A stretch of 58,180 bases of DNA from Candidatus Chazhemtobacterium aquaticus (GTDB lineage: Bacteria; Patescibacteriota; Microgenomatia; UBA1400; Chazhemtobacteraceae). Numbering within the stretch: the stretch's first letter is position 1; every line of letters starts with the position of its first letter. The DNA lies in NCBI RefSeq assembly GCF_009936135.1, contig NZ_CP047901.1:1-58180 (forward strand). Reading direction: 5' to 3'. Shown piece by piece: positions 6,830-57,006 of the stretch. Under the pieces are notes generated by a model, which was not told the origin of the DNA, did not search any database, and saw nothing but the letters and a program-made list of their open reading frames with translations. Made by a program: the position numbers and the translations under genes.

Positions 6830-6832
6830 TCT

Positions 6833-9800: not shown

Positions 9801-12800
9801 TTCAGGTTGCTACCACCACCACCATCAACACTCTAAGCGCCACTATTGCCAACTCCTCCCCTTTCCACATCGGCTCTCGCAATGGCGCCGCCCAGTTCTT
9901 CAACGGCCTCATCGACGAAGTCCGTGTCTTTAACTCCGTCCTTGACTCTGAAACCATCAAAGATCAGTACGTTTTAGGGTCAACCAATCATTTAAGTCTC
10001 CACCCCTCCCTTGACGCCATCTTAAAAAACGAGGGTAACGCCAGCCTAAATCTAACCACCGGCAAACTTAAAGTCGATCACGCCACCGTCGCCTACTATA
10101 CTCTCGACCAAACCGGTGGTTCCGGTGCCTACATCAAAGATCTCTCTTACAACGACAATCACCTTACCCCCACTGGTACGTCTTCCACCGACGGTATCTC
10201 AAATAAAGCCAGAAGCTTCAACGGAACCAGTAGCGATTATCTTTCTATAAACTCAAATTTAGGTTTAGGTACATCCAACATTACGATTGAAGCTTGGGTA
10301 TATATCAACTCCACCTCTCGTAACGGCGCTTTTGTTAAAATTGGCAACACGGGTGGTTACGGCATCGGCATTGGAGCCAGTACCTTTGATACTACTAGTC
10401 AAGGCAATGACCTAATCCTGCTCTACGAGAATGTTCGCTGGATCGATACCAACACAACCTTAGGAACAGGCTGGCATCACGTAGCCATGGTCATAGATGG
10501 TACTGGAGTCCCATCCGCCTACAAAGACGGTGTTCTTGTAGGTACATACGGCGGATCAAATGCTGTCTCACCCTCCAGTAACTCATATATTGGCGGCTAC
10601 ACAACCGGCGGATATGTTCGCTACTACAACGGCATAATAGACGAGGTTCGCATCAGCAATGTTGCTCGCACCGCCACCGAGATCGCCGAGAGCTACCGCC
10701 TTGGACGCAATCACAAGTTTAGTCTCATCAGCACCTCATCCAACAACCTATCAACCACCGACCACCTTCCCGTCTCCATTGCCGCTGACGAACCAGGTAC
10801 ATATCTCCAAACCAGCATCTCTGAAAGCTCATACAAAGACCTGGAACCAGAAAACAACACTGTTGCCCTCTACCACCTAGAAGAAGAAAGCCCGTCCAGC
10901 TCATATCTCGTTCAAGACTCCTCTGTCTACAAAAATCACGGTACCCCCACCTCCATCACACTCAATCAAGGTGTTATAGGCAACAGCGCCAAGTTCAGCG
11001 GTTCCGGCCAAATCAACCTCGGTAACCCATCCTCTCTTCAAATCACCGGTAATCAAACCATTGAGATGTGGATCTATCCCACCAGCTTCTCAGCAAGAAG
11101 AAACCCCTTCGCCAAAGCCTATGGCGGTGAAGGCACAATTACCCAAGAAACCAATGGCACTCTCAACTACTACTACGGTACTGCCGGCGGCAATACCACT
11201 CCCTACCAAGCCTTTAACTCCTCAGCTGCCTTAGAACTCAACAAATGGACCCACATCGCTCTGGTTCGGGACCTCACCAACATGACCCTCACCTGGTATT
11301 TCAATGGCGTCGTCGTCAACACTGCCACTGCTTCCTACGCATCCGCTACCGCCAGCTCACTTAACGCCCTCATCGGTAACGGCTACACCAACTACTTCAT
11401 CGGTTCTCTTGACGAAGTCCGCATTAGCAATGTAGCCAGAAGTGCCGAAAAAATACGCCAATCTTATGAAGCCGGTAAACGTACTCATTCCATTACTATC
11501 GACTTTGGCGCCTCACTTGACAGTGGCAACTTGATCTCCAACTCATCCGACACCTCCTTTACCATTGATGCCACCACCAAAGGTCTCTCTCAAAAAGGTG
11601 CCAATCTCTATACCGGTGACACCATCATCATCAAAGAAAACTACGACGGCACAGAATACATCGCCCAAGGCGAAGTCGCCTCAGTCAATAAAAGTACTGG
11701 CGCCGTCACTGTTTCAAGTTGGCAATCAGGCTCAACCTTCCCCGCCAGTGGTTTTACTATCAATGCCACCGTCTTTAAGTGGCAAACCGAGTACATCAAC
11801 ATTTCCAATATCCCCGATCAAGACCGAGACACTATTTACAACATTGGCCTTAAAATTACCGATGGTAATCAAGGCCGGTCTATCTGGATTGACAACCTAA
11901 GAAAATCCAGCGGCTACTACACCAACAACCTCTCCACCAGCATCGACTCCACTCCCAACCGCTACTTCCAGTACCGCGCCATCTTAACCTCTGCCGATAG
12001 CCAAGTGACTCCCACCTTAAACTCAGTCACTCTCGACTATGTCCAAAACTATACCCCCAACCAACCCTCTCTCGAGGCCGCCTACCTCCACGACAATCTC
12101 TACACCCCAGACTCCACCCCCACTATCCGCTTTTCCGCCACTGACGACGATAATGATGATATAAATTACCAAGTCCAGATCTACACCGATGCTGACTTTA
12201 GCTCCCCCACGAGTTACACAAGCGGCACTGACTCCGGTTTTGCCAACATCACCACCCCCGCCGATACCGCTCCTTTCAATGAAGGCGACACCATTAGCTT
12301 CACCTTCCCCACTCTCACCAGCGGCACCACTTATTTCTACCGTGTTCGCGCCATCGACCCTAGTGGTACCAACAGCTACGGCGACTGGTCTACCACCAAA
12401 TCCTTTACTATCAACACCTCACTTACCAACAACGCCTGGCATCAAACCCACGCTGATCAATTCTCCAGCGATACTGCCTCCCTCTTCATTAACATTAGCG
12501 ATGTCGGCAACTCCGTCACCATCAACAACCCTCTCATCTACCGCACTGTTACTATCAACAACTCAGGATCACAGCAGAGTAACTATGATGCTCTCATCGA
12601 ACTAGACACCGCCTCCCTCATCTCAGCTGGTAAGATGCAATCAGACTGTGATGATATTCGTTTCTGGACCGATGATACTTTAACCACCAATCTAAACTAC
12701 TATCTTGAATCCGGTTGCAACACCAGCACCACCCAAATCTGGGTTCGCATTCCCACCCTAAACTCAGGCGACAACATCATCTACCTCTCCTACAACGATG

Positions 12801-25421: not shown

Positions 25422-26117
25422 ATGGATCTAAAAAATAGAGTGCAAAAATTAAGACAACAAGGCAAAACATATGGAGAAATTCAAACCATTTTAGGCAAAC
25501 GAATACCAAAAAGCACCCTCTCACACTGGTGTCGTCATACTCCTCTACCCCCTTTCTATCAATCCAAAATTTCCCATCTAAACATCAAAAACTTAAACAA
25601 GGGTCGCTTGATTGCTGTTGAGATAAACAAAATTAAAAGACAAGAGTTACTTAATCAAATTACAGATACGAATAAACCGATCTCCACCCAAATCACCAAC
25701 CCCAATACAGCCAAAATTGCTCTCTCCATGCTTTGTTTAGGCGAAGCATCAAAATACAATCCCAAAATTAGAGGCTCTTTTTATCTAGGAAACTCCAACC
25801 CAAAAATCATTCTCATATTTCTTAAACTACTTGAAATTGCTTTTCCAGACTTTGACTCAAGAAAACTTAGATGCACTGTCCAATGTCGTGCCGACCAAGA
25901 CACAAAAAGCTTAACTAAATACTGGCATAAAATCACCAATATTCCCCTAAAACAATTCTACAAACCATTAATCGACCCAAGAACCAAGGGTAAACCAACC
26001 AAAAAACCAGACTACAAAGGTGTCTTAAGGATCGACTATTTCAACTCCAAAACCAGACTGGAGTTGGAGACTTTAGCCAATCTGGTTTATAATAACCTCA
26101 AGTCTCCGGGCCCATAG
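25422..26117 (+). CDS. HTH-domain protein with a possible LAGLIDADG-type endonuclease-like body; function uncertain
   Basis: 231-aa A-rich ORF. N-terminal resolvase-type HTH (GKTYGEIQTILGKRIPKSTLSHW). LSMLCLGEASK resembles a LAGLIDADG-type helix motif. The C-terminal block YWHKITNIPLKQFYKP..KPDYKGVLRIDYFNSKTRLELETL is also endonuclease-like. Its last 10 nt overlap the tRNA-Ala(GGC) gene. Confidence 0.6.
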   Translation: MDLKNRVQKLRQQGKTYGEIQTILGKRIPKSTLSHWCRHTPLPPFYQSKISHLNIKNLNKGRLIAVEINKIKRQELLNQITDTNKPISTQITNPNTAKIALSMLCLGEASKYNPKIRGSFYLGNSNPKIILIFLKLLEIAFPDFDSRKLRCTVQCRADQDTKSLTKYWHKITNIPLKQFYKPLIDPRTKGKPTKKPDYKGVLRIDYFNSKTRLELETLANLVYNNLKSPGP

Positions 26118-26183
26118 CGCAGTTGGTAGCGCGTCGCAATGGCATTGCGAAGGTCGTGGGTTCGATCCCCACTGGGTCCACCA
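26108..26183 (+). tRNA. tRNA-Ala (anticodon GGC), CCA encoded
   Basis: Manual cloverleaf: GGGCCCA/TA/GCGC-AGTTGGTA-GCGC/G/TCGCA-ATGGCAT-TGCGA/AGGTC/GTGGG-TTCGATC-CCCAC/TGGGTCC/A/CCA. It has the G3:U70 alanine identity pair, T33, anticodon GGC and a GTTCGATC T-loop. Confidence 0.9.
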
Positions 26184-26700: not shown

Positions 26701-26774
26701 GGGCCTGTAGCTCAGTTGGCTAGAGCGCTGCATTCGCATTGCAGAGGCCGGCGGTTCGACTCCGCCCAGGTCCA
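26701..26774 (+). tRNA. tRNA-Ala (anticodon CGC), CCA not encoded
   Basis: Manual cloverleaf: GGGCCTG/TA/GCTC-AGTTGGCTA-GAGC/G/CTGCA-TTCGCAT-TGCAG/AGGCC/GGCGG-TTCGACT-CCGCC/CAGGTCC/A. It has a G3:U70 pair and anticodon CGC. The 3' flank is CCC, not CCA. Confidence 0.9.
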
Positions 26775-26801
26775 CCCATCATCAATTATATTTTCCAAAA
26801 A

Positions 26802-46174: not shown

Positions 46175-47056
46175 TCACATAGCCACCACTTTTATCATCT
46201 CTGCCGCCACATTCACACCCGTTCTCTTCTCAAAATACTTAAACTGAGCCGTTCTGTTTATCTCCAATACCACCCAATCCTGCTTCTCCTCGTCCCAAGC
46301 TACGTCTAAACCTGCATAATCAATCGCAAACAACTCACACGCCCTCAAACACAACTCTCTAAGCCTCCTCATCTTTTTCTCACTTAATTTAACCAACTTA
46401 CCTTCCTCACCCTCATATTTACTCTTCTGTCTATGTCTCATCTCACCTAAATACTTACCTCCCACCACAATACAGCGATACCACTGTTTTATCTTCAACT
46501 TTGGCTGCACCAACACCTCTCCCGTCTTGTATCCTTTCATCACCTCCTCAAATCCATCCCAGTCTCGAACCAACTTAACTGCCCTACCATGGCTACCAAA
46601 CCGCCCCTTAACCACCATTGGAAAATTAAACCACGGCTCTTCCTCAAAATCCTCCCAACCTGATTTACTCCCAAAACTCACAAAATCAACCGTTGATACT
46701 CCATACTTTGCCAACACCAAGCCCTGTTCCAACTTACCCATCAATGGAAACTTCTCAAAACTCTCTCCATTCAACACTTTTGCCCTACCATCTCTCTTTA
46801 ACATCTCCAGCACCGCTGTCTTTGTTCCCACCATCGAACTTCCTTTTTTACTAGAGGCTCGCATCACCACCACCTCATAATCATCCAACCTTCTCTTCTT
46901 CCGCAAATCTATCTCCACCTTACCTCCACTCACTCCTAAACTAATCTGTCCGTACTTAACCAAATCAACCTCATATCCCATCTTTCTACCCTCCTCTGCC
47001 AATCTTACTGGCTCATACTCCTTCACAAACCGAGTTAATATCAACATTTTTTTCAT
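46175..47056 (-). CDS. RimK-like ATP-grasp ligase (paralog 1)
   Basis: 293 aa with ATP-grasp core motifs (PMVVKGRFGSHGRAVKLV; LVQPKL; YAGLDVAWDEE..WVVLEINRTAQF). Confidence 0.8.
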   Translation of the reverse strand: MKKMLILTRFVKEYEPVRLAEEGRKMGYEVDLVKYGQISLGVSGGKVEIDLRKKRRLDDYEVVVMRASSKKGSSMVGTKTAVLEMLKRDGRAKVLNGESFEKFPLMGKLEQGLVLAKYGVSTVDFVSFGSKSGWEDFEEEPWFNFPMVVKGRFGSHGRAVKLVRDWDGFEEVMKGYKTGEVLVQPKLKIKQWYRCIVVGGKYLGEMRHRQKSKYEGEEGKLVKLSEKKMRRLRELCLRACELFAIDYAGLDVAWDEEKQDWVVLEINRTAQFKYFEKRTGVNVAAEMIKVVAM

Positions 47057-47095
47057 GTTCCCATCTTATCACCCCCACCTGTTTTTAAGAATCCT

Positions 47096-48007
47096 TTACC
47101 TCTCAGCCTTCCCCACCAAGTACTCCACAATCATCTTTACAATATTTTTACCTGTCCTTTTCTCCATCACCCTAAACTCCGGTGCTTCGTTTACCTCAAC
47201 CACATACACCTTTCCATCTCGACTATCTTTCACTAAATCAATTCCCGCCACCTCCACCTCCACTGCTCGAGCCGCCGCCTCTGCCACCTCTACCACCTCA
47301 CTTGGCACCTCCTTAAGTCCTTCCGATCTCCCCAGCGACTTATTCATCACCAACTTTTCTTCCTTAGCCTGTCTCTTAAAACCCGCCACCACTTTGTATC
47401 CCACCACAAAAACTCGATAATCCCCATCATTAGGTATATACGGTTGAATCAAAAACCCTCTAAAGACTGGTACCTCCCTACCTTCCTCAACTGCAACTCT
47501 TTTTCTTTCCTCCAACTTCTCTGCCAACTCATCCAAATCCTCTCTTTTCCTAATCCAAAAGGTCCCCATCCCATGTCTGCCTCCCTTGCTTAACTTAACC
47601 ACTACCGGCAACTCCCAATTATCTAACTCACTCACTAAATCAGCCAGCTTCTCTACCAAAACTGTTTTAGGATAACTTACCCCTTTCTCAATTAACTGCC
47701 ACCCCATTACTGCCTTAAATCGTCGCAACGGACCCTCTGTCCCCAGATACTCATCCACCATTGGAATCTTATGTTTTCGCGCATACAAATCAAGCAATTT
47801 ACTCCACTCCAACTCTGATCCCACTGCTCGAAAGTAAAACAAATCAAAATCACTTAACTTCATATCTCCAAAATATATCTCGGTGTCCTGCAAACTAAGC
47901 TGCCGATACTTAATCGGCACTATCTCAATCCCCAGCTTCAGCCCTTCCTCCACAAACCGCTTATGAGTCTCAAATTTATCCAGTCTATAAAAATATGCAA
48001 TTTTCAT
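47096..48007 (-). CDS. RimK-like ATP-grasp ligase (paralog 2)
   Basis: 303 aa with PVVVKLSKGGRHGMGTF, FLIQPYIPNDGDYRVFVVG and VAGIDLV..KVYVVEVNEAPEF. Confidence 0.8.
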   Translation of the reverse strand: MKIAYFYRLDKFETHKRFVEEGLKLGIEIVPIKYRQLSLQDTEIYFGDMKLSDFDLFYFRAVGSELEWSKLLDLYARKHKIPMVDEYLGTEGPLRRFKAVMGWQLIEKGVSYPKTVLVEKLADLVSELDNWELPVVVKLSKGGRHGMGTFWIRKREDLDELAEKLEERKRVAVEEGREVPVFRGFLIQPYIPNDGDYRVFVVGYKVVAGFKRQAKEEKLVMNKSLGRSEGLKEVPSEVVEVAEAAARAVEVEVAGIDLVKDSRDGKVYVVEVNEAPEFRVMEKRTGKNIVKMIVEYLVGKAER

Positions 48008-48011
48008 ACTC

Positions 48012-49316
48012 CTATCTTACTCTAACTAACCGAGGATCAATCAGAAACTCCTTCAAGTCTTTTCTCCCTAAAATCATCTTTGTTCGTAATCCATGCCTAT
48101 TAGTCACACTTGCCTGCGCCCTAAATCTCACTCCTTTAAGCTTCATGTCCACCTCAATGATCTTCCGTCTTTCCTTACCTAAAGCTGACCGAAAAGTTCT
48201 CTCCCATAACACATGCTCCTGGCTCAATAACCCCAACTCAGTCGCCAATTCTTCGTCAATACTTGAACGAAAAGCTCCCGTGTCAAGCTTTGCCCTCACC
48301 TCAACCCGCTTACCCTTATGTGGCTTTAATCTCACCGTTTCAAACACCCCCACCACCTGTTTCTCACCCGGTACCCCTCTCACTCGATGAGAAAACTTTG
48401 AAGCAAACAATGCCTTAGCCACTCTGACTGCTTTTTCCACGTCCTCAATCTCTATCCCCTCAACCCGCTCCAACCTTCGCTTCAATCCAGTCATATTCGC
48501 CAGCTGGATCGACAGCCCGGGCTGATCATTGATCTCAATCACCATTGGACCCCTTTCCTTATCAAGCAAAATATCTACTCCAAAGTAACCCAAGCCTGGT
48601 CGTTTAAACTGGATTCTACTCGCCGTTTCAAGCACTTTATTCCAAAAAGGTATCGCAATCCCATTCACCTTTTTCTTAGTTCCCGGAAAGTGCTTAATCC
48701 TCCTATCATGATGTACTGCATGGGTCGTTATCCCTGTAGCCAAATCCACCCCCAAACCAATGGCTCCCTGATGCAAGTTGCTCTTCCCCTTACTTTCCTC
48801 CGTTGGCACTCTAAGCATCGCCATCACCGGCACCCTATTAAACACAATCACTCTTACATCCGGAGTTCCCCCCACTGCTACCTTAACAAACTTCGGGTGA
48901 ATCTTGACCCGTCTCTCAATCAAAGCCCTATCCGGCAAGTTATTTCTACTATACCTTCCTTCAATAATATCGTTAGCATGAAGTTTCAAGTCACCCACTC
49001 CGACCTTGCCTCCATCCATCAACAGCCACTCACCCGCATACTTAGCCGGCTTTTTTACCACCATGATCCCCGATCCACCCAATCCATCTACTGGCTTGAT
49101 TACAAAACCATCATCCAAAGAATTCCAGTCAAACTCCTCTACCTCTTGAGACGAACCAAGCAATCCCAAGATCTCTGGATGCGGTATCTTGTACTTCCGC
49201 AAAAACTGCTTGGTCAGCATCTTTGAATCAGCCGTCTTTCTAGACTGCTTCTTGTTCAAGCCCAAGTAATATTTGCTCCGGGCATTAATCCCTAAGATAT
49301 CCTTCGCATTAGCCAT
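48012..49316 (-). CDS. Alpha-L-glutamate-ligase-like ATP-grasp fused to a retropepsin-like (RimB/'ATP-dependent Zn protease' PF05618-type) domain
   Basis: The N-terminal ILGINARSKYYLGLNKKQSRKTADSKMLTKQFL and the body (VIKPVDGLGGSGI; YFGVDILLDKERGPMVIEINDQPG) match the RimK-related E-ligase-like family. The C-terminal part is VGVFETVRLKPHKGKRVEVRAKLDTGAFRSSI...VTNRHGLRTKMILGRKDLKEFLIDP. It carries the DTGA aspartic-protease signature and the LGR..L..FL(I/V)DP ending of that domain. Confidence 0.8.
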   Translation of the reverse strand: MANAKDILGINARSKYYLGLNKKQSRKTADSKMLTKQFLRKYKIPHPEILGLLGSSQEVEEFDWNSLDDGFVIKPVDGLGGSGIMVVKKPAKYAGEWLLMDGGKVGVGDLKLHANDIIEGRYSRNNLPDRALIERRVKIHPKFVKVAVGGTPDVRVIVFNRVPVMAMLRVPTEESKGKSNLHQGAIGLGVDLATGITTHAVHHDRRIKHFPGTKKKVNGIAIPFWNKVLETASRIQFKRPGLGYFGVDILLDKERGPMVIEINDQPGLSIQLANMTGLKRRLERVEGIEIEDVEKAVRVAKALFASKFSHRVRGVPGEKQVVGVFETVRLKPHKGKRVEVRAKLDTGAFRSSIDEELATELGLLSQEHVLWERTFRSALGKERRKIIEVDMKLKGVRFRAQASVTNRHGLRTKMILGRKDLKEFLIDPRLVRVR

Positions 49317-49318
49317 TT

Positions 49319-50302
49319 TTATCTCTCCAACAATTTACGAAACCGCCACCTCTCCAACAACCGCAAACCATCATATCTCCCAATTAAAACATCCAAAACC
49401 ACAATCGCTACCACCGCAATCTCAGGATTAAGCAGTACCCACTCCTGCAAACCCTGAGTACTCATAACCAAGAAACTCAACAAAGCCAGCAACAATGTCT
49501 GACCTGTCATTACCAAGGCTGTTTTTAAGGTCGTTGTAATCTGCACCTCTATAAAAGTCTCTACCAAGAGAATCAGTAACAAAATCGGGAAGATACTAAT
49601 CTTCACCAAACCCTCTAACTTCAACCATGGAGATGCCAACATCAAGCCCAACACCCCCATCGACACAAACCAGATCAACAAAGCCATACGTGGTAAAGAC
49701 GGCAACTTTAGCTTCCTCATCACCATTCTAGCCAACGTTGCCATCAACAAAATCCCGCCAAACAAAATTACTCCCACCGTCACTCCAGTTGCCAAAAATG
49801 CCACCGCGATCACCGCTGGAGTAAAAATTCCAAACCCATGCAGACCCACCACATGCCTGGCCGCTGCGATCAGCGCCGCTACCAACGGAAACAGCATCAT
49901 CAACACTATCGTATTCGCTGGTACCCCATTACTTACCGCTCTCCTAATCGCCACCTGCAAAAAATTGGCCACTCCAAGCTGGCCCACCTCCTTAGAATCA
50001 AGCACTCTCTCCAATCTTGTCTTGGCTTCTTTAGGCTCAGTCAAGTCATCTTTAGGTGGTTTAACTTCTTGCACTGCTGCAGCTGTTGCCTCCTCAGCTG
50101 ACATGCTTGCCTCACCTGGCTCACTAGACATCGTTGCCACCAACATATCTTCTCCCACTTGAGCTCTCACCTCACCAGTTACCACCAATAATCCCAACAC
50201 CACCAATAGTAATATCCCTTTTTTCATCATTTCTCGCCTCTGCCTCAACCTAAATTCTAACTCTAAAGCGAATTCTACCAAACGCCCGTGCCTAAGTGTC
50301 AA
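49319..50302 (-). CDS. 7-TM membrane protein of the 'inactive transglutaminase-associated 7TM' type
   Basis: 327 aa. A signal/TM segment is followed by a soluble acidic segment and then seven hydrophobic helices. The C-terminal IGRYDGLRLLERWRF matches the conserved ending of that 7TM family. It sits 2 nt upstream of the ATP-grasp/retropepsin gene. Confidence 0.65.
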   Translation of the reverse strand: MTLRHGRLVEFALELEFRLRQRREMMKKGILLLVVLGLLVVTGEVRAQVGEDMLVATMSSEPGEASMSAEEATAAAVQEVKPPKDDLTEPKEAKTRLERVLDSKEVGQLGVANFLQVAIRRAVSNGVPANTIVLMMLFPLVAALIAAARHVVGLHGFGIFTPAVIAVAFLATGVTVGVILFGGILLMATLARMVMRKLKLPSLPRMALLIWFVSMGVLGLMLASPWLKLEGLVKISIFPILLLILLVETFIEVQITTTLKTALVMTGQTLLLALLSFLVMSTQGLQEWVLLNPEIAVVAIVVLDVLIGRYDGLRLLERWRFRKLLER

Positions 50303-52137
50303 ACAACAGTTACATCACTATACCGATGTCCATCATCACTTAATCTTCGTTCAATCTCCAGCTTGGCCTCACTACCTACCCCTGCCACCACCAACTCAAA
50401 AGTATAAAGTTGACCATCGCCCTCGGTTTTACCCAATCTGATCACCCCCCCAAATTCACTAATCAATCCGCTCACCTCAGCCATTATCCCCCTCTCATCC
50501 CGACCTGCCAGCCTTATCTTCATCAATCCCGACCTCACCCCCTCCAACTCACTTCTCTCAAATACCCTAACTACCTCCTCTACTGCCCTATTTCCCAATC
50601 CCATCTCTAAATACAGCTCCTCAATATCTCTAACTCCAAGCTCCATCAACACCAAGCGCATCTTCTTCCGTTCATTCTCACCCCAAACCAAGTCATTCAA
50701 ATCATCAAATCCCTTCGACTTCATCCAGGATGTTAACAAACCTCTGCCACGCTCAAGATCAGCCGTCGCTCCAATCTCTTTAGCTATCTCCTCTAACTTC
50801 TCTCTTGTTTTAGGCAACATCGCATACTCAAACAATCCAACATCCACCCCATTACCCTCCTTCATTACCAGTCTCACCACCGCTGCATTTGGAATATTAA
50901 TACTCAAAGGAAACTCTCTATCATCAACCAATATTGATCCCACACTATGTAATAACTGCGGATCAATACTCACCACCAAATCCACCCCAGTTGCTTCCTC
51001 AGGTAAAAACTTAATCACCCTCCCCTCAGTATCAAAAAATAGCTTTAGACTGTACCTGCTCACATCCTCTCCCCTTCTCAAACCTCTCACCACCCCCCAA
51101 GCATTAAACTCCTCCATCTCCTCAGTTACAAATGCTACCTCTGTTGATCCTTCTTTTAGTCTTAATCCCTCATGCATCGCCCGATACCCGTTATACGTCT
51201 TTTCTGTTATGTAATCATCCGCCCTTTGTGGATCAACCAATCCATCCTCGCTTACCCTTATATACTGACTAGCCATCCGGCAATCAAGTTCACTAGGCAA
51301 TACCACCCTAAAACTAACTAACTGAACCTGTGAAAAATCTCTAGCTCGCATGCTCTCCCTTTTCTTAACTGCCTCCCAATATCCCATCACCTGCCACTCA
51401 ACTCTACCCTCAACTCCCATCTCAACCAACATTCTCTCCAATCTTGTCTGCCAATGATACAAAAACTCTCTTCTTAGCCTCAAGTCACTATCTATCCTTC
51501 TCTTAGCCTCCTCCATCTTCTCTGGATATAGATAAAACACCGACAAATCCTCCAGTTTTCGTTTTACCTCCCACACCCCCAAAGACTCAGCCAGTGGCAC
51601 ATACACCTCAAACGTTTCTCTCGCTTTAGCAATCCTCTTTTCCTGAGGCATCGGCTCTAACGTCATCATATTATGCGTCCTGTCGGCTAGCTTAATCAAC
51701 GCCACCCGTGGATCCAAGCCACTCTCTCTTACCACCCTCTTTGTCGTCTCAATATCCTCCTGTCTCTTTGTTCTTCCCGTTCCCTTTAACTCAGTTACAC
51801 AACCAACCAACTTTGCCACCTCTGCACCAAACTTAGCTTCCAATTCCTCCAAACTTACTCCAGCATCCTCAACCACATCATGAAGCAACGCAGCTGCCAA
51901 AATCTGTTCATCATCTATACCCATCACCTCTCTAACCAAACTAGCTACCGCCACCAAATGATCGGTATAATCAGAGCCATCCCTTCGTTTCTGACCTGCA
52001 TGTTTCTCCAGTACAAAATCATATGCCTGTCTTTCAAGCTCACTACCAGATTGATACTCCTCTGTTTTTAACGCAAATCCCCATCCCTTTCTTAACTCAA
52101 AATCAACTCTATGTATATCTCTCTCCAATCCTGACAT
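50299..52137 (-). CDS. RelA/SpoT homolog (long RSH): intact HD hydrolase domain, degenerate synthetase domain, TGS and ACT domains
   Basis: HD motifs are HLVAVA, LLHDVVED and IKLADRTHNMMTL. The synthetase-region equivalents are altered:
- GRxKxxxSI is replaced by MGYWEAVKK.
- DLxxxR is replaced by QLVSFR.
- YQSLHT is replaced by YRAMHE.
- EVQIRT is replaced by EVAFVT.
The C-terminal ACT-like segment is IRLAGRDERGIMAEVSGLISEFGGVI. The gene overlaps the downstream 7TM gene by 4 nt. Confidence 0.85.
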   Translation of the reverse strand: MSGLERDIHRVDFELRKGWGFALKTEEYQSGSELERQAYDFVLEKHAGQKRRDGSDYTDHLVAVASLVREVMGIDDEQILAAALLHDVVEDAGVSLEELEAKFGAEVAKLVGCVTELKGTGRTKRQEDIETTKRVVRESGLDPRVALIKLADRTHNMMTLEPMPQEKRIAKARETFEVYVPLAESLGVWEVKRKLEDLSVFYLYPEKMEEAKRRIDSDLRLRREFLYHWQTRLERMLVEMGVEGRVEWQVMGYWEAVKKRESMRARDFSQVQLVSFRVVLPSELDCRMASQYIRVSEDGLVDPQRADDYITEKTYNGYRAMHEGLRLKEGSTEVAFVTEEMEEFNAWGVVRGLRRGEDVSRYSLKLFFDTEGRVIKFLPEEATGVDLVVSIDPQLLHSVGSILVDDREFPLSINIPNAAVVRLVMKEGNGVDVGLFEYAMLPKTREKLEEIAKEIGATADLERGRGLLTSWMKSKGFDDLNDLVWGENERKKMRLVLMELGVRDIEELYLEMGLGNRAVEEVVRVFERSELEGVRSGLMKIRLAGRDERGIMAEVSGLISEFGGVIRLGKTEGDGQLYTFELVVAGVGSEAKLEIERRLSDDGHRYSDVTVV

Positions 52138-52223
52138 CTTACTCCCAGATCATACAAAAAAATCATCCAAAAAGCAAATACTACAGGACACAACGCTCCT
52201 TTACCATTTCCGTCGTAAACCGA

Positions 52224-53465
52224 CTATTCCATCTCTACTACTCCAAAATCTTTCTTTCCCTTCCTTACCAAAAAATACTTATCATAAAACAACTCGTAAC
52301 TTACACCGTTTTGTTCAACTACTCTTCGAGCCTCACTCTTGGAGCTAACTAAACCTAGCTCCACCAACACTTCTTCAATAACTATCTCTGATTTACTCTT
52401 AATCTCCATATGGGGAATTGCCAGCTTAACAAACTCAAAGTCGCTCCTACTCATCCTTTCCTTACCCCGATCGAACAAAACTTGAGCCACTTTACGTGAC
52501 TGCTTTGCCTTTTTCTCACCATGTACTGTTGTCACCAACTCCTCCGCTAAAACCCTTTGCACCAATCTACCCTGACGATCTTTGTCCCAATCGCTCAACA
52601 CCTTCTTAATCACTTTTATGTCTTTAAATGAATAAAACTTTAACAAAGTTGGTGCCAATTCATCACTTACATTAATCAAAAACTGATACAGGCCAAAGGG
52701 ATGAGTCTTTTCAGGATCAAGCCAGATCGCTGATCCAGATTCTGTTTTGCCAAACTTTCTTCCAGTTTTTGGATCAACAATCAATGGAAAAGATAAACCA
52801 TGAGCCGTTTTCTCATACTTCCTTCTAATCAAATCGACTCCTTGCAAGATATTGCCCCACTGGTCAGACCCACCCATCTGCACATTACATCCATGTTTCT
52901 CAAACAATACTGCAAAATCATATGCCTGCAACAACTGATACGAAAACTCTGCGTAAGATAATCCCTGTTCTCGTTCCAACCTTGCTTTCACTGACTCCTT
53001 GTCCATCATTGAACTAACTGGCATATACTTACCCACTTCTCGCAAAAACTCAATCAGCTTAACCTTCCCCAACCAATCAACATTATCAATCATATGCACT
53101 CTCTTACCATCAAAATCCAAAAATCTAGATAATTGTTTCTTCAACTTCCTCTTATTTGCCTCAATCACTTTGTAATCCACCATTGGCCTCTCCGCGTCCT
53201 TTCCAGACGGATCTCCAATCAACGACGTTCCTCCACCCATAATGATAATCGCCTTATGTCCAGCATCTACAAATCTCTTCGCCATCGTCACCCCCATCAA
53301 ATGACCGATGTGCAAACTGTCTCCCGTCGGATCAATCCCAATATACACCGTCACCTCTTTGCTCAAATCCTTGTCCAACCCGGGTGTTGCATCATAAACC
53401 AAACCCCGCCACTTAAGATCTCTCCAAAAATTTTTATCAATCATTGTCATAATTTTATCACTCAT
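52224..53465 (-). CDS. tyrS: Tyrosine--tRNA ligase
   Basis: Class I HIGH motif (DSLHIGHL), KMSKS equivalent KFGKT, GGSDQWGN, and a C-terminal S4-like domain (SKSEARRVVEQNGV). Confidence 0.95.
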   Translation of the reverse strand: MSDKIMTMIDKNFWRDLKWRGLVYDATPGLDKDLSKEVTVYIGIDPTGDSLHIGHLMGVTMAKRFVDAGHKAIIIMGGGTSLIGDPSGKDAERPMVDYKVIEANKRKLKKQLSRFLDFDGKRVHMIDNVDWLGKVKLIEFLREVGKYMPVSSMMDKESVKARLEREQGLSYAEFSYQLLQAYDFAVLFEKHGCNVQMGGSDQWGNILQGVDLIRRKYEKTAHGLSFPLIVDPKTGRKFGKTESGSAIWLDPEKTHPFGLYQFLINVSDELAPTLLKFYSFKDIKVIKKVLSDWDKDRQGRLVQRVLAEELVTTVHGEKKAKQSRKVAQVLFDRGKERMSRSDFEFVKLAIPHMEIKSKSEIVIEEVLVELGLVSSKSEARRVVEQNGVSYELFYDKYFLVRKGKKDFGVVEME

Positions 53466-53468
53466 TAA

Positions 53469-54239
53469 TTACTTAAGTGTCACCATCATCCCATCACGAG
53501 CAAGCAAACACCTTTTTGCCCGCAGAAAATTCTCTATCTCCTTAACATTCTCAGAATGATTTACATGAGTATAAATCACCTCTCGCTTCAATATATCCAC
53601 AGATTTCTCAATTGTCAGATGATTAAATTTTGAAGCAGGATAAGTATTTTCATTTAAGAAAGTCCCATCAAATACAACAACATCAATCATCGCGATTTCC
53701 TTAATCATCTTTTCTGTTATCTCGCTCACATCAGGTGAATACCATACCTTACCTGACGAATCGGATACGATTACAGCCACTGTGGGAAATCCAGGGTCAT
53801 GGGGAACATCGACCAGCTTCACTCCACACTTCTTTGCATTATCCTCACTCACCAACTTAACAAAACCTGACTTGACCATATACTCAATTTCTTGATTGGG
53901 AAACCTTTTCCAAAGTCTCCGAACCCTCTCAGACACCAACACCGGAACCTTACACGGCCGACCTCCAGACAACTCAATTAACCCATTCGCATGATCAAAA
54001 TGAAAATGAGTTATCACAATCAAATCTAAATCTCGAATCTTCAATCCAACACCACTTAATTGCTGACGAAAATCCGGACCACAATCCAATAGAATTCTTG
54101 ACCTTTTTGTCTCAACCAACAAACTACTCCTCAGCCGCTGTTTATTCTTTTTCTTTAAAGCAGCACGGCAATACTTACAGTCGCAATCCACTTGAGGCAA
54201 ACCACCATTAGCGCCAGTTCCCAAAAAAGTTATCTTCAT
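53469..54239 (-). CDS. MBL-fold metallo-hydrolase (PhnP/tRNase Z-like)
   Basis: The N-terminal FLGTGANGGLPQVDCDCKYC has the Cys cluster seen in PhnP/PqqB-like members. The HxHxDH motif is ITHFHFDHANG. The 4-nt overlap (ATGA, 54236-54239) is with the upstream NTase-like gene. The stop (53469-53471) lies 3 nt upstream of the tyrS start at 53465. Confidence 0.8.
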   Translation of the reverse strand: MKITFLGTGANGGLPQVDCDCKYCRAALKKKNKQRLRSSLLVETKRSRILLDCGPDFRQQLSGVGLKIRDLDLIVITHFHFDHANGLIELSGGRPCKVPVLVSERVRRLWKRFPNQEIEYMVKSGFVKLVSEDNAKKCGVKLVDVPHDPGFPTVAVIVSDSSGKVWYSPDVSEITEKMIKEIAMIDVVVFDGTFLNENTYPASKFNHLTIEKSVDILKREVIYTHVNHSENVKEIENFLRAKRCLLARDGMMVTLK

Positions 54240-55177
54240 TTCAACCCATTACTAATTCGCAACTCTGTCAATACTGGCCACAACTTAATCACTCCCCTAT
54301 ACAGACCTTCCACCTCATCCAAATCAACCGCCGAACCCATTGACCTCAATCGACGAATCTCATGAACTACAGTCACTAACGCCTCACTTCCTAGGGCATT
54401 CGGGAAATTATCAATAATTTCTTCCCAAGTACCAACCTCAATATTCTTACCGTCCTCAACAACATTAGCCATCGCCCATTTTAAGCTGTAATCCAACACA
54501 TGTATCGTTTGAGGACCCAAAAACTCTACCGGCAATACATGTCTATTTGTCCTCAACATTCTAAAATTATCACTAATGCCATCTAAACCTCCTACTGTTA
54601 AATTATGATCGCTTATCACCACCCCAGCTCGCGCCATCTCAGCTATTTGACGGGCCGCCTCCTCATCACCCCACAAACCCAATGATTGTCCAAATAATCC
54701 TCTTGTTAGCTTGGGAGGCTCAAATGCCAAAGCCGCCCTTGCTGAAGGGTAAATCAATGAATGAACCATATGAAGATTGGCATCAGGACCAGCCACCAAA
54801 CGTGCAATCGCCATCTGGGCATCTTCAAGTCTAATCGTCGAAGCAAACACTGGGGTTGTCCCAAATTTTTCCATAATCTTTCTCGTTGCAACGTTCATTG
54901 CATCTAAAACCAAATCGTAAGCGTCTAAATTAACTGGATCGTCTTCTTGAGCACCGTCAAGCAAAATTACCAAATCATCATCACTGATCACTCCACCAAC
55001 TTCCCCTTTAAGCTCAGCCTGTCTAGCCTTACTTCCAGAAACTGCAATCCACTTAACTCTTGCTCCTATCTCAGGGTTTTCTTTAACAGCAGTATCAATT
55101 TCATCAACTATTGCCCCAACAACTGGTTGCGCCAAAAACTCAACTCTCAATTTTTCTTGCTCTGGTGTTCTCGCCAT
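54236..55177 (-). CDS. Hypothetical protein with a Pol-beta-type nucleotidyltransferase-like signature
   Basis: The start is reassigned to the ATG at 55177 (MARTPEQEKL...), because the ORF-track start at 55270 lies inside the T-box terminator/antiterminator. The segment IAVSGSKARQAELKGEVGGVISDDDLVILLD resembles the hG(G/S)-x(n)-D-x-D NTase motif. The fold call is tentative. Confidence 0.6.
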   Translation of the reverse strand: MARTPEQEKLRVEFLAQPVVGAIVDEIDTAVKENPEIGARVKWIAVSGSKARQAELKGEVGGVISDDDLVILLDGAQEDDPVNLDAYDLVLDAMNVATRKIMEKFGTTPVFASTIRLEDAQMAIARLVAGPDANLHMVHSLIYPSARAALAFEPPKLTRGLFGQSLGLWGDEEAARQIAEMARAGVVISDHNLTVGGLDGISDNFRMLRTNRHVLPVEFLGPQTIHVLDYSLKWAMANVVEDGKNIEVGTWEEIIDNFPNALGSEALVTVVHEIRRLRSMGSAVDLDEVEGLYRGVIKLWPVLTELRISNGLK

Positions 55178-55197
55178 ATTTTTTATAAATAAATAAC

Positions 55198-55490
55198 AAA
55201 AAAGCCCTTGCTTGAATCCAAAAAAAATTAGACTCAAACAAGGGCCTTCAAGAACTAAAGACGGTACCACCTTGCTTTTGCCATTCTGTCACCAGAATGA
55301 CCTCACCGAGTGCTCTGTTTACCTTAAATAGGTGACACACTCTCGATATTTTACGGTTATCTTCCGTGTCTGATTTAGTCAGACCAGCTCCAGAGGGTAA
55401 TTTCACATTTTGAATTCGACTGGTTTGCAGCTACCACCAGCTCTCTTATGTCACTTCAAAAAGCTACTATTTCTCCTTCAACGCCTTTGA
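55198..55490 (-). promoter_or_regulatory. T-box riboswitch leader, probable Tyr (UAC) specifier, with intrinsic terminator
   Basis: Elements on the minus strand:
- T-box sequence AAGGUGGUACCGU (55273-55261).
- Canonical antiterminator: helix CAAGG/CCUUG, 7-nt bulge UGGUACC, helix GUCUU/AAGGC.
- Competing 15-bp terminator: GCCCUUGUUUGAGUC (55245-55231) with GGAUUCAAGCAAGGGC (55219-55204), then U6 (55203-55198).
- Stem I K-turn (GUU bulge, tandem G:A pairs).
- AGUA element.
- AG bulge AGAGAG followed by distal hairpin CUGGU-GGUAGCUGCAA-ACCAG.
- Specifier-loop 3' side GAAAUUACC, with UAC at 55399-55397 one nt before the lower helix. Confidence 0.85.
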
Positions 55491-55510
55491 CAAAATTTTA
55501 AAGTAAAAAC

Positions 55511-55539
55511 AAAGTACCAAGACAAAAACAAACTGTCAA
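55511..55539 (-). promoter_or_regulatory. Candidate promoter for the T-box leader (TTGACA-17-TACTTT)
   Basis: On the minus strand, -35 is at 55539-55534 and -10 at 55516-55511. It sits directly after the lysS stop. Confidence 0.35.
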
Positions 55540-55548
55540 CCTTAAGCC

Positions 55549-57006
55549 TTACCTCTCAGGTCGCAAAGTCGGAAAAATAATTGTATCCTTCAAATTAGGC
55601 TGATTTGTCACAATCGCTGTAAATCGATCAATCCCCATTCCCCATCCTGCCGTTGGTGGCATACCATACTCAAGCGCTCGAATATAATCCTCATCTAGCA
55701 TCTGTGCTTCCTTAAAACCTGCCTCCAACAGCTTTTTCTCCTCCTCCCATCTCTCTCGCTGATCTTGTGGATCATTAAGCTCATTATATGCATTAAAAAT
55801 CTCAAAACCGGCTACCACCAAAGCCACACTTGCCACCTTACTTGGATCACCACTCTTTCTTTTTGCCAACGGCTTCATTTCATACGGATGATCGATCAAA
55901 AAAACCGGCCCCGTCATTTTGGGTCTGCAATACTCCTTATACAACTCATCCAACACATTGGCATACCCCTCTACCTCCTCCAACTCTACTTTCAGCCCCC
56001 TACTCTTAATCATCTCCCGCAACCCCTTTTCATCCTTGACTTCATCAATATCAATCTTCGTATCCCGAAACACTAAATCTCTGAAGGTAATCCTCTCCCA
56101 ACCTGGACTAAAATCAATTTTCTTACCCTGATACTCTATCTTATACTTCCCTGTTACCTCCTTTACTGCCCCACCCAACATCTCCTCTGATAACTTCATT
56201 AAATCCTCATAGTTGGCATATGCCCAGTAAAACTCCATCATTGTAAACTCTGGATTATGTTGCCGATCGATTCCCTCATTTCGAAAATCCTTAGCAATCT
56301 CATATACCTTTTCATATCCCCCCACAATCAATCTCTTTAGATACAACTCATCAGCAATTCGTAAATAAAACTCACTCTTCAACGCGTTATGAAAAGTCTT
56401 AAAGGGTCTCGCGGTCGCTCCTCCGTAAATTGGCTGTAACACTGGTGTTTCCACCTCCATAAACCCCTTTTTATCCATAAACTGACGCAGAAATCTCACC
56501 ATCCGTGTTCTTGCATCAAACACCTTCCTCACCTCTGGGTTAAGTATCAAATCTACATACCTCTGCCGATATCTCTCCTCCACATCCTTAAATCCATGCC
56601 AACTCGAAGGCAGTGGCCTTACCGCCTTACTCAACAATCCAAACACCTTTACCTCCACACTTATCTCTCCCGCCTTAGTCTTAAACACACCACCACCTGC
56701 TTGCACAAAATCACCAATATCCACCAACTCCTGTATCATCCACTCCCTCTCACTCACGTTATCCTTCTTTATAACCAACTGCATTTGACCTGACTCATCT
56801 CTCAAATCCATAAAAATCAAACCTCCATGCCCCCTTATTGCCATCACTCTACCAACCACCTTCACTTTCTCACCCTCTTTCTCCCTTGCCTCAGCAATAA
56901 CATCTGTCCTTTCCGTCTTTCCAATATACGGATCTACTCCCAGCTCCTTAAGCTGCTTAATTTTTTCAATTCTCTGTTCTCTAATTCCTGACAATCTCCC
57001 GGCCAT
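55549..57006 (-). CDS. lysS: Lysine--tRNA ligase (class II)
   Basis: N-terminal OB anticodon-binding domain. Class II motifs are FMEVETPVLQ, FRNEGID..HNPEFTMMEFY and GMGIDRF. Confidence 0.95.
   Translation of the reverse strand: MAGRLSGIREQRIEKIKQLKELGVDPYIGKTERTDVIAEAREKEGEKVKVVGRVMAIRGHGGLIFMDLRDESGQMQLVIKKDNVSEREWMIQELVDIGDFVQAGGGVFKTKAGEISVEVKVFGLLSKAVRPLPSSWHGFKDVEERYRQRYVDLILNPEVRKVFDARTRMVRFLRQFMDKKGFMEVETPVLQPIYGGATARPFKTFHNALKSEFYLRIADELYLKRLIVGGYEKVYEIAKDFRNEGIDRQHNPEFTMMEFYWAYANYEDLMKLSEEMLGGAVKEVTGKYKIEYQGKKIDFSPGWERITFRDLVFRDTKIDIDEVKDEKGLREMIKSRGLKVELEEVEGYANVLDELYKEYCRPKMTGPVFLIDHPYEMKPLAKRKSGDPSKVASVALVVAGFEIFNAYNELNDPQDQRERWEEEKKLLEAGFKEAQMLDEDYIRALEYGMPPTAGWGMGIDRFTAIVTNQPNLKDTIIFPTLRPER

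Follow-up and report, generated by a model that had tools for sequence, protein, structure and literature searches.

Why do genes for two uncharacterized enzymes stand between a tyrosine-type T-box leader and tyrS, the gene for tyrosyl-tRNA synthetase (TyrRS)? The question is raised by an operon on the minus strand of a 58,180-nt stretch of DNA from Candidatus Chazhemtobacterium aquaticus (contig NZ_CP047901.1, positions 1 to 58,180; this whole stretch is referred to below as the window). The explanation we favor, to which as a whole we assign a probability of roughly 0.6, combines a switch that responds to uncharged tRNA-Tyr with a pair of enzymes whose chemistry is centered on tyrosine. The three genes of the operon, in the order in which they would be transcribed, are the following:

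54236-55177, minus strand: ORF1 (open reading frame 1), encoding an acidic protein of 313 aa counted from an ATG, with a predicted nucleotidyltransferase (NTase) fold resembling that of kanamycin nucleotidyltransferase (KNTase) and MNT proteins (open reading frame list, profile and AlphaFold2 model).

53469-54239, minus strand: MBL, encoding a metallo-beta-lactamase-fold protein of 256 aa, a predicted binuclear metallo-hydrolase of the PhnP/PqqB/PRK02113 clade (Pfam, AlphaFold2 model and metal ligands).

52224-53465, minus strand: tyrS, encoding a bacterial-type TyrRS of 413 aa (TIGR00234 and PF00579).

The last 4 nt of ORF1 are also the first 4 nt of MBL, and tyrS begins 3 nt past the MBL stop codon, which is the gene order and spacing that a first-pass annotation of this DNA had described. 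As that annotation also had it, tyrS is the third gene; its product scores 328 bits against TIGR00234 (cut-off 113.8) and 230.9 bits against PF00579.

The leader region is the minus-strand gap between lysS (55549-57006) and ORF1. Here the Rfam T-box model, RF00230, matches 55490..55237 of the minus strand over its full length (model positions 1-219) with 99.4 bits and E = 9.7e-21, above the gathering score of 93 bits, so that the T-box proposed in the first-pass annotation is borne out by a covariance model. Its parts are:

55237..55490, minus strand: T-box leader RNA, comprising Stem I, Stem II/IIA-B, Stem III and the antiterminator (RF00230 and covariation).

55480-55478, minus strand: UGA of the GA/K-turn (letters aligned to RF00230).

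55468-55465, minus strand: AGUA (letters aligned to RF00230).

55446-55442, minus strand: AGAGA bulge (letters aligned to RF00230).

55399-55397, minus strand: codon UAC within the specifier loop GAAAUUACC, which is closed by GGAG/CUCU and has C at 55396 (letters and the register of relatives).

55271-55262, minus strand: T-box sequence GGUGGUACCG (letters and RF00230).

55263..55269, minus strand: bulge UGGUACC (letters and RF00230).

55195..55248, minus strand: intrinsic terminator with its U-tract, the stem being 55248..55201 (terminator scan, minimum free energy fold and covariation).

The GA/K-turn of Stem I, the S-turn specifier loop (AGUA...GAA), the AG bulge and the distal loop all align to the RF00230 consensus, in agreement with the elements that had been read from the letters beforehand. 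The UGGUACC bulge and the strong competing terminator that had been read with them are also in place; the terminator stem is 20-22 bp long, and the 5' arm of this stem shares sequence with the 3' side of the antiterminator. The leader as a whole folds with a z-score of -4.05 against dinucleotide shuffles, and in an RNAalifold consensus of eight related leaders compensatory changes affect 27 of 65 pairs and sit in distal Stem I, in Stem III and in the upper terminator. Judging from these elements and their conservation, and from the tRNA-dependent readthrough for which the T-box family is known, the leader is very probably a functional class-I (that is, transcriptional) T-box riboswitch specific for tRNA-Tyr. 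The switch itself is an ordinary, textbook T-box.

The alignment to RF00230 leaves an uncertainty of one position within the specifier loop, because the covariance model inserts a base there. Under the rule that the specifier consists of the three bases ahead of the final loop base, the codon is UAC and the final base is the C at 55396. Related loci, which were reached through ORF1 homologues in metagenomes and metagenome-assembled genomes (MAGs) and were compared throughout in a tblastn table, bear directly on this choice. A T-box precedes the ORF1 homologue in both kinds of source wherever upstream DNA is present, and 19 of 20 distinct leaders hold UAC in the same register, which settles the choice of UAC at the very position claimed in the first-pass annotation. 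The codon also agrees with the regulated gene, a TyrRS being encoded downstream, and the Tyr assignment of the leader is secure. The base 3' of UAC is C in 11 of these leaders, U in 4 and A in 4, and is thus a pyrimidine in 15 of 19. The C at 55396, which had been flagged as an irregularity, is therefore best regarded as a trait of the lineage and not as an error, since relatives carry C, U or A at this place; the other features of the T-box are unaffected. The bulge reads UGGUACC in most of the 20 leaders (UGGUAUC or UGGUAAC in three) and is invariant within leader alignment A3. On RF00230 the leaders of relatives score 76-105 bits, with three divergent or truncated ones at about 40 bits.

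Two of the related leaders look degenerate. The one at L019:96-303 (related loci are designated L001 and so on) keeps UAC and has lost the UGGUACC bulge, and the one at L029:3612-3862 has a truncated Stem I and reads GAAUUAACA, with an extra A (a 1-nt insertion) within the codon. These defects may represent real decay or may be assembly errors.

Could the specifier nevertheless have been mis-assigned (the adjoining frames would give ACC for Thr or UUA for Leu), or could the leader be a decaying relic? Such a reading would accommodate the insertion that the covariance model places in the specifier loop, the missing purine after the codon and the degenerate appearance of the L019 and L029 leaders. 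It would leave unexplained that 19 of 20 leaders keep UAC in register despite variation in the flanking base, that the synthetase encoded downstream is TyrRS in all cases, that UGGU fits A73 of tRNA-Tyr, and that compensatory substitutions preserve the helices. We regard mis-assignment or decay as extremely improbable.

Two further leaders depart from the usual architecture. In the Tyr leader at L010:4913-5180, Stem I is ultrashort and its terminal loop carries the specifier (AAGUAAUACA), and the leader still ends in a terminator and U-tract. At L001:3383-3630 there is a second, weak T-box (41 bits). Its Stem I is an ultrashort hairpin, UCGGA-GUCGCGA-UCCGA, in which CGC or GCG may be the specifier, and a UGGUACC bulge and a terminator are also present. 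T-boxes with an ultrashort Stem I are known chiefly from Actinobacteria, as translational switches. The second L001 T-box precedes genes for a 273-aa protein and an S9/alpha-beta-hydrolase-like protein and a 111-aa open reading frame. We entertained the idea that this might be a paralogous ORF1 system, and rejected it because hhalign finds no relation of the 273-aa protein to ORF1 (probability 0.1).

The tRNA side of the proposed recognition can be followed in the relatives. The tRNA-Tyr(GUA) genes adjoining related operons have the discriminator A73, which is what the UGGU bulge requires and what the first-pass annotation had anticipated for the tRNA-Tyr of this genome, whose gene lies outside the window; none of these genes encodes CCA. 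They lie just upstream of the leader at L002:5463-5534, L011:4247-4318, L017:3145-3216 and L022:3457-3528, and in two further loci the gene is found inside the operon. In L015 (2269-2713), tRNA-Tyr(GUA) (2599-2683) starts right after the terminator U-tract, so that the tRNA that this T-box binds seems itself to be transcribed under its control. In L010 (6741-6845), the tRNA-Tyr(GUA) gene has MBL on one side and tyrS on the other, the spacers being 5 and 26 nt. The four upstream tRNAs are 72 nt long, with G1-C72, no long variable arm and a class-I shape, and the adjoining TyrRS is of the bacterial type; the L015 tRNA-Tyr retains a variable arm, and that of L010 has C1-G72 and is accompanied by an archaeal-type TyrRS. 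(Both C1-G72 tRNA-Tyr and mixed tRNA-Tyr identities have been described in bacteria of the Candidate Phyla Radiation, or CPR; PMC5370408.)

How far does control by the leader extend? Public gene calls (cluster P0001, 344 aa) begin ORF1 at a GTG at 55270. The N-terminal 31 residues of P0001 (window 55178-55270) are not conserved among homologues. This start is likely mis-called, because it falls inside the T-box terminator region and the extension that it would add is unconserved, and the ATG at 55177 is preferred. Control of the whole operon by the leader is consistent with the 4-nt overlap, the 3-nt gap and the recurrence of the same gene order in related loci.

That order, T-box, ORF1, MBL, tyrS, is held by about 30 related metagenomic loci, so that T-box-linked homologues of both uncharacterized genes, the search for which had been suggested in the first-pass annotation, do exist in other genomes. 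In the tblastn table, every ORF1-family gene is followed directly by an MBL of this clade wherever the contig continues, and in every gene-called locus checked the two overlap or are separated by at most 1 nt. The pairing includes a distant branch of ORF1 (23-28% identity; hhalign E = 1e-53 to 1e-59) and extends to L010, whose ORF1-type protein is more distant still. A TyrRS follows the pair in every locus long enough to show one. One group of these synthetases is 63% identical to the TyrRS of the window and the others are 28-35% identical, with ORF1 and MBL staying at about 50%, and the TyrRS of L010 is of the archaeal/eukaryal type (PRK08560, 372 bits). The fact that the linkage survives exchanges of TyrRS and tRNA-Tyr type suggests that what is shared is a chemical partner, tyrosine or Tyr-AMP, and not a contact with one particular protein or tRNA. 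ORF1 and MBL are a translationally coupled pair that has co-evolved with tyrS as a unit, and the trio is conserved in many Patescibacteria with tiny genomes.

Some relatives recruit further genes into the operon. That of L001 adds an ELFV amino-acid dehydrogenase, and that of L011 adds a group-II decarboxylase dependent on pyridoxal phosphate and a fusion of an ArgE/DapE-type deacylase with GNAT; the decarboxylase misses all equivalog cut-offs. Note that L012, which is the L001 contig (CAZIMC010000002.1), is labelled "uncultured Gammaproteobacteria" and has Patescibacteria-like content (the T-box, a sortase and the CPR-restricted pair), so that it is maybe mislabelled or chimeric.

If the pair were simply a passenger, it would be co-transcribed with tyrS for historical reasons and would have a housekeeping role unrelated to tyrosine. 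The link of the pair to tyrosine does rest on context and not on direct function, distant NTase-like relatives of ORF1 (P0090 and P0102) are linked to neither an MBL nor tyrS, and in an earlier survey about 8% of T-box-controlled genes were of unknown or unrelated function (PMC2494555), so that the situation of ORF1 and MBL has precedent. Yet every examined locus shows the pair in the context of tyrS alone, this context holds over approximately 24-60% sequence divergence, changes of TyrRS type and changing neighbor genes, and the pair is kept in a genome whose largest contig is only 801,504 bp, a contig on which the window's own copies also occur. Chance hitch-hiking would not survive rearrangement of this kind, and we consider a passenger role rather improbable.

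What, then, might the first enzyme be? ORF1 by itself gives no Pfam match at E <= 1 and none in NCBIfam or PHROGs, a single-sequence search of the PDB returned nothing significant, and against PADLOC there were noise-level matches only. The family is small: we found 18 relatives among 5.8 billion (5.8e9) clustered proteins, 28 representatives in a profile search of 1.84 billion (1.84e9) proteins, and members in 2 of 185,579 GTDB species genomes, and those members that carry a name belong to the Patescibacteria, Candidatus Collierbacteria among them. Within the tyrS-linked clade the Pol-beta NTase signature, G48-S49 ... D66-x-D68, is invariant, and the family has invariant residues of its own (T114, R116, E118, H139, E153, H226, K233 and W234). 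In the AlphaFold2 model, which has a mean predicted confidence (pLDDT) of 90.3, an alpha/beta domain at the N-terminus is followed by a helical bundle at the C-terminus. The top Foldseek neighbors of the model are ANT(4'), a kanamycin nucleotidyltransferase, and MntA, with probabilities of 0.96-1.0, E of about 5e-3 and template modeling (TM) scores of 0.21-0.29. The profile of the ORF1 family matches the PDB NTase 2rff (E = 5e-5), with weaker matches to DrrA, KNTase and MNT proteins, and distant relatives reach 21-25 bits on Pfam NTP_transf_2 (gathering score 21), a family of which the window ORF1 itself shows no match (PF01909, PF18765). The protein has an isoelectric point (pI) of 4.84, and the family is acidic in all members (pI 4.4-6.1). 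Because of the profile match to 2rff and the distant members at the NTP_transf_2 threshold, the designation of the first regulated gene product as NTase-like, already made in the first-pass annotation from its motif, is supported by sequence profiles and model comparison; the family is undescribed and belongs to no curated family. An NTase of a defense or toxin-antitoxin system (MNT-HEPN, AbiEii or CBASS) was rejected for want of PADLOC support and of an adjoining toxin partner, and a HEPN-type Rx4-6H motif in the C-terminal domain was discarded, because conservation of its R206 and H213 stops at the close subfamily and does not extend to the whole family.

MBL, the second enzyme, matches Pfam Lactamase_B_2 with 86.7 bits. 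Its binuclear ligands (H78, H80, D82, H83, H147, D170 and H225) are invariant, and at least 90% of sequences conserve H228 and also C19, C21 and C24, which form a CxCxxC structural zinc motif. The nearest folds to its AlphaFold2 model (pLDDT 95.4) are those of PqqB (TM 0.83), 6B9V (0.75), E. coli PhnP (0.74) and short tRNase Z, ELAC1 (0.68). The best PDB sequence match is 6B9V (E = 4.7e-18, 25-26% identity), an entry entitled "a New Diphosphatase from the PhnP Family" and described as an FAD photoproduct diphosphatase (PMC7599082). Brucella homologues have been crystallized with AMP or GMP. MBL falls below all NCBIfam equivalog cut-offs, including those of PhnP (TIGR03307, 75.8 versus 272 bits) and PRK02113 (101.9 versus 386 bits), and it forms a separate clade, set off from the general family by a gap in E-values between 1e-44 and 1e-24; against PADLOC it gave generic motif matches only. 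On this sequence and model evidence, MBL is a probable PhnP-type binuclear phosphodiesterase or diphosphatase of a separate subfamily. The earlier label, "PhnP/tRNase Z-like", thus holds in the sense of an MBL of the PhnP/PqqB clade. We rejected RNase Z itself, since MBL scores 67.9 bits against RNase Z (TIGR02651), for which the cut-off is 293, and residues 33-89 alone align. We also rejected PqqB itself (HFHFDH is intact, TIGR02108 gives 78.6 versus 245 bits, and there are no pqq genes in the loci), and PhnP proper and Apyc1, the curated cut-offs of which were missed.

With these properties in hand, two functions that the first-pass annotation had put forward, tRNA(Tyr) maturation or repair and tyrosine metabolism, can be weighed against each other. 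In the first, the pair would be a module for the 3' end of tRNA-Tyr that is co-induced with TyrRS, with MBL trimming the trailer or opening a 2',3'-cyclic phosphate and the NTase rebuilding CCA. The tRNA-Tyr genes upstream of the leader (L002, L011, L017 and L022) and inside the operon (L015 and L010), all without encoded CCA, fit this reading, as do the proximity of the MBL fold to tRNase Z, the basic character of the MBLs of the distant clade and the fact that CCA-adding enzymes share the NTase fold. However, ORF1 is acidic in every member and carries no PolyA_pol (PF01743) or class-I tRNA NTase domain, which also led us to reject a CCA-adding enzyme or poly(A) polymerase, and its best structural matches are NTases of small molecules or proteins. 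As for MBL, only the N-terminal motif aligns to RNase Z, and at 256 aa the protein has the length of PhnP, with no room for an exosite arm. The lack of CCA, moreover, is not specific to tRNA-Tyr: tRNA-His and tRNA-Glu genes by related operons are likewise without it, as are all tRNAs seen in the related loci. The need for CCA addition is therefore general, and a family with 28 representatives in 1.84e9 proteins cannot be the general enzyme. Finally, induction of a T-box needs an intact CCA end, and so damaged tRNA-Tyr would not induce the operon. We judge a tRNA-end module unlikely. Of the two functions, tyrosine metabolism fits slightly better and tRNA(Tyr) maturation or repair is less favored, because ORF1 is acidic, neither protein has an RNase Z or CCA-enzyme signature and the lack of CCA is not specific to tRNA-Tyr; the evidence separates the two only partly. 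(The remark in the first-pass annotation that the window contains a tRNA gene lacking CCA is true of tRNA-Ala(CGC), 26701-26774, which is followed by CCCA (entry 26701-26778) and has no exact CCA; tRNA-Ala(GGC), 26108-26183, encodes CCA.)

A different substrate for the NTase would be a protein. ORF1 would then AMPylate, for example, a tyrosine of TyrRS or of another translation factor, and MBL would erase the modification, so that charging is tuned by reversible nucleotidylation. ORF1 matches MntA in fold and profile. The PDB annotation of MntA names it the MNT antidote in a toxin-antitoxin pair. HepT, a HEPN toxin, is AMPylated by MntA on a tyrosine. There is in addition a weak match of ORF1 to the AMPylation domain of DrrA, and tight translational coupling would suit a writer and its eraser. 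What argues against protein nucleotidylation is that the linkage spans unrelated bacterial and archaeal TyrRS proteins, which speaks against TyrRS as a conserved target, that PADLOC found no signature of a HEPN toxin or defense system, and that we know of no de-AMPylase of the PhnP type. We consider it very unlikely.

Our tentative preference, based on fold, active-site residues and gene context and held at somewhat less than even odds, is that the pair acts on a small nucleotide-linked or nucleotidylatable molecule centered on tyrosine, which could be tyrosine, an analogue of it or a compound like tyrosyl-adenylate. We lean toward a small molecule because the linkage is indifferent to the type of TyrRS and tRNA-Tyr, because ORF1 is acidic and resembles NTases that act on small molecules or tyrosine side chains, because the closest characterized relatives of MBL cleave nucleotide-containing small molecules, and because relatives recruit amino-acid enzymes into the operon.

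In the mechanism that we propose, the specifier UAC would pair with the GUA anticodon of tRNA-Tyr, and UGGU of the bulge would pair with the free ACCA end of the uncharged tRNA. The second pairing would stabilize the antiterminator against what is a very strong terminator, and RNA polymerase would then read through to produce a single polycistronic ORF1-MBL-tyrS message. The NTase would nucleotidylate a hydroxyl or phosphate of the tyrosine-centered molecule, and MBL would cleave a phosphodiester or diphosphate that contains a nucleoside monophosphate. The pair would thus be switched on along with TyrRS, restoring the charging of tRNA-Tyr when it is low. In a more specific form, the pair would be a T-box-induced system for aminoacylation homeostasis that works on a tyrosine-nucleotide conjugate; it might neutralize or recycle tyrosyl-adenylate-like compounds (natural inhibitors of TyrRS or faulty side-products), or it might carry out reversible O-nucleotidylation of tyrosine. 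We regard this more specific form as doubtful.

Several observations weigh against the explanation as a whole or against parts of it. On the side of the switch, the base 3' of the specifier is C and not the conserved purine, the window holds no tRNA-Tyr gene, so that pairing with the anticodon and discriminator was checked in relatives alone, and one promoter-like site within the coding sequence (53618..53590), although it occurs at the frequency expected by chance for the region, might be an internal promoter. On the side of the enzymes, ORF1 lacks a Pfam match, its Foldseek matches are weak (E = 5e-3) and catalysis is inferred from motifs, and the extra amino-acid genes are confined to two lineages. 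The tRNA-Tyr genes embedded in the operons of L010 and L015, the strongly basic MBLs of the distant clade (pI 9.2-9.9) and the nearness of the MBL fold to short tRNase Z favor an RNA substrate.

Comparison with known systems helps to separate what is familiar in this locus from what is not. The T-box of B. subtilis tyrS, the founding T-box (RF00230), has the same K-turn, AGUA...GAA loop, UAC specifier, AG bulge and distal loop, the same Stem II/IIA-B, Stem III, UGGN bulge and competing terminator, and the same synthetase gene. It differs in that the leaders of the present lineage mostly have a pyrimidine after the codon (15/19) instead of a conserved purine, that the window operon has two genes ahead of tyrS in a host belonging to the Patescibacteria, and that some relatives pair an ultrashort Stem I with a terminator. 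In the Enterococcus tyrS-tdcA-tyrP cluster (PMC3315439), tyrS is likewise under tyrosine-responsive antitermination and has tyrosine-metabolizing neighbors, and L011 also has a decarboxylase; however, there is no NTase/MBL pair there, and the decarboxylase is absent from the window. Similar in logic only is the B. subtilis rtpA-ycbK (anti-TRAP) operon (cited in PMC2494555), where a T-box controls proteins of amino-acid homeostasis that are neither synthetases nor biosynthetic enzymes; the proteins and the amino acid are unrelated.

The two enzymes resemble known proteins to a lesser degree. MBL shares with 6B9V and E. coli PhnP the HxHxDH...H...D...H site, the CxCxxC motif and a length of about 250 aa, whereas it is only 25-26% identical, lies under the PhnP cut-off and has no phn genes or ribF nearby. 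With PqqB, a hydroxylase that acts on the Tyr-derived ring in the formation of pyrroloquinoline quinone (PQQ), it shares the best fold match and the same N-terminal Cys motif; PqqB, however, lacks the first two His of HxHxDH (NGDVDH/DSQIDH), and MBL keeps HFHFDH. ORF1 carries the GS...DxD motif and, going by its model, would share with ANT(4'), MntA and HI0073 a two-domain build in which a Pol-beta NTase domain precedes a helical bundle; it differs from them in its low identity (14-16%) and TM scores (0.25-0.29), its own set of invariant residues and the absence of an NTP_transf_2 match. A literature search found no paper on T-boxes in CPR bacteria or Patescibacteria, which does not show that none exists, and a search for a T-box with tyrS and an MBL likewise found nothing. 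The regulated ORF1-MBL pair is undescribed, and it stands out by its conservation and by the chemistry that it implies.

The surroundings of the operon contain genes of other kinds. A gene of the Rel/SpoT family (window 50299-52223; HD_4 and RelA_SpoT domains, 612 aa) begins 86 nt past tyrS. A terminator scan found no recognizable terminator in the 86 nt that separate the two genes, and readthrough from the T-box may for that reason continue beyond tyrS and reach rel, a gene for a (p)ppGpp enzyme. The arrangement of rel after tyrS is not conserved in relatives. Downstream of rel, at 46175-50302, lie four genes that suggest a system of the peptide-ligase type: they encode a 7TM_transglut membrane protein, a fusion of ATPgrasp_ST with a retropepsin-like protease, and two RimK-like ATP-grasp enzymes. 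This cluster is followed by mnmA and a gene for an S1-domain protein. Elsewhere in the window (77-14797, plus strand) there are two successive giant open reading frames of 2250 aa and 2654 aa.

The T-box serves here as a functional label, in that it marks two uncharacterized enzymes as responding to uncharged tRNA-Tyr. It also offers a cheap biochemical entry point, the pair being two soluble proteins of about 30 kDa with a short list of candidate substrates. Three departures of the lineage, namely the pyrimidine after the specifier, the use of a terminator by leaders with an ultrashort Stem I (that of L010 and, in L001, the second T-box) and a tRNA gene under the control of the T-box that it would bind (L015), extend the range of the T-box. 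If the pair acts on tyrosyl-nucleotides or on the ends of tRNA-Tyr, it would represent a new class of T-box-regulated function. The genomes of Patescibacteria are very small, and to present knowledge these organisms carry out little biosynthesis of amino acids. That the pair is conserved under a T-box in such small genomes suggests that it likely matters for sustaining tyrosine charging, and if the pair does work on a tyrosine-nucleotide conjugate, then a bacterium with a minimal genome would meet uncharged tRNA-Tyr not with the synthetase alone but with the synthetase and a dedicated small-molecule chemistry.

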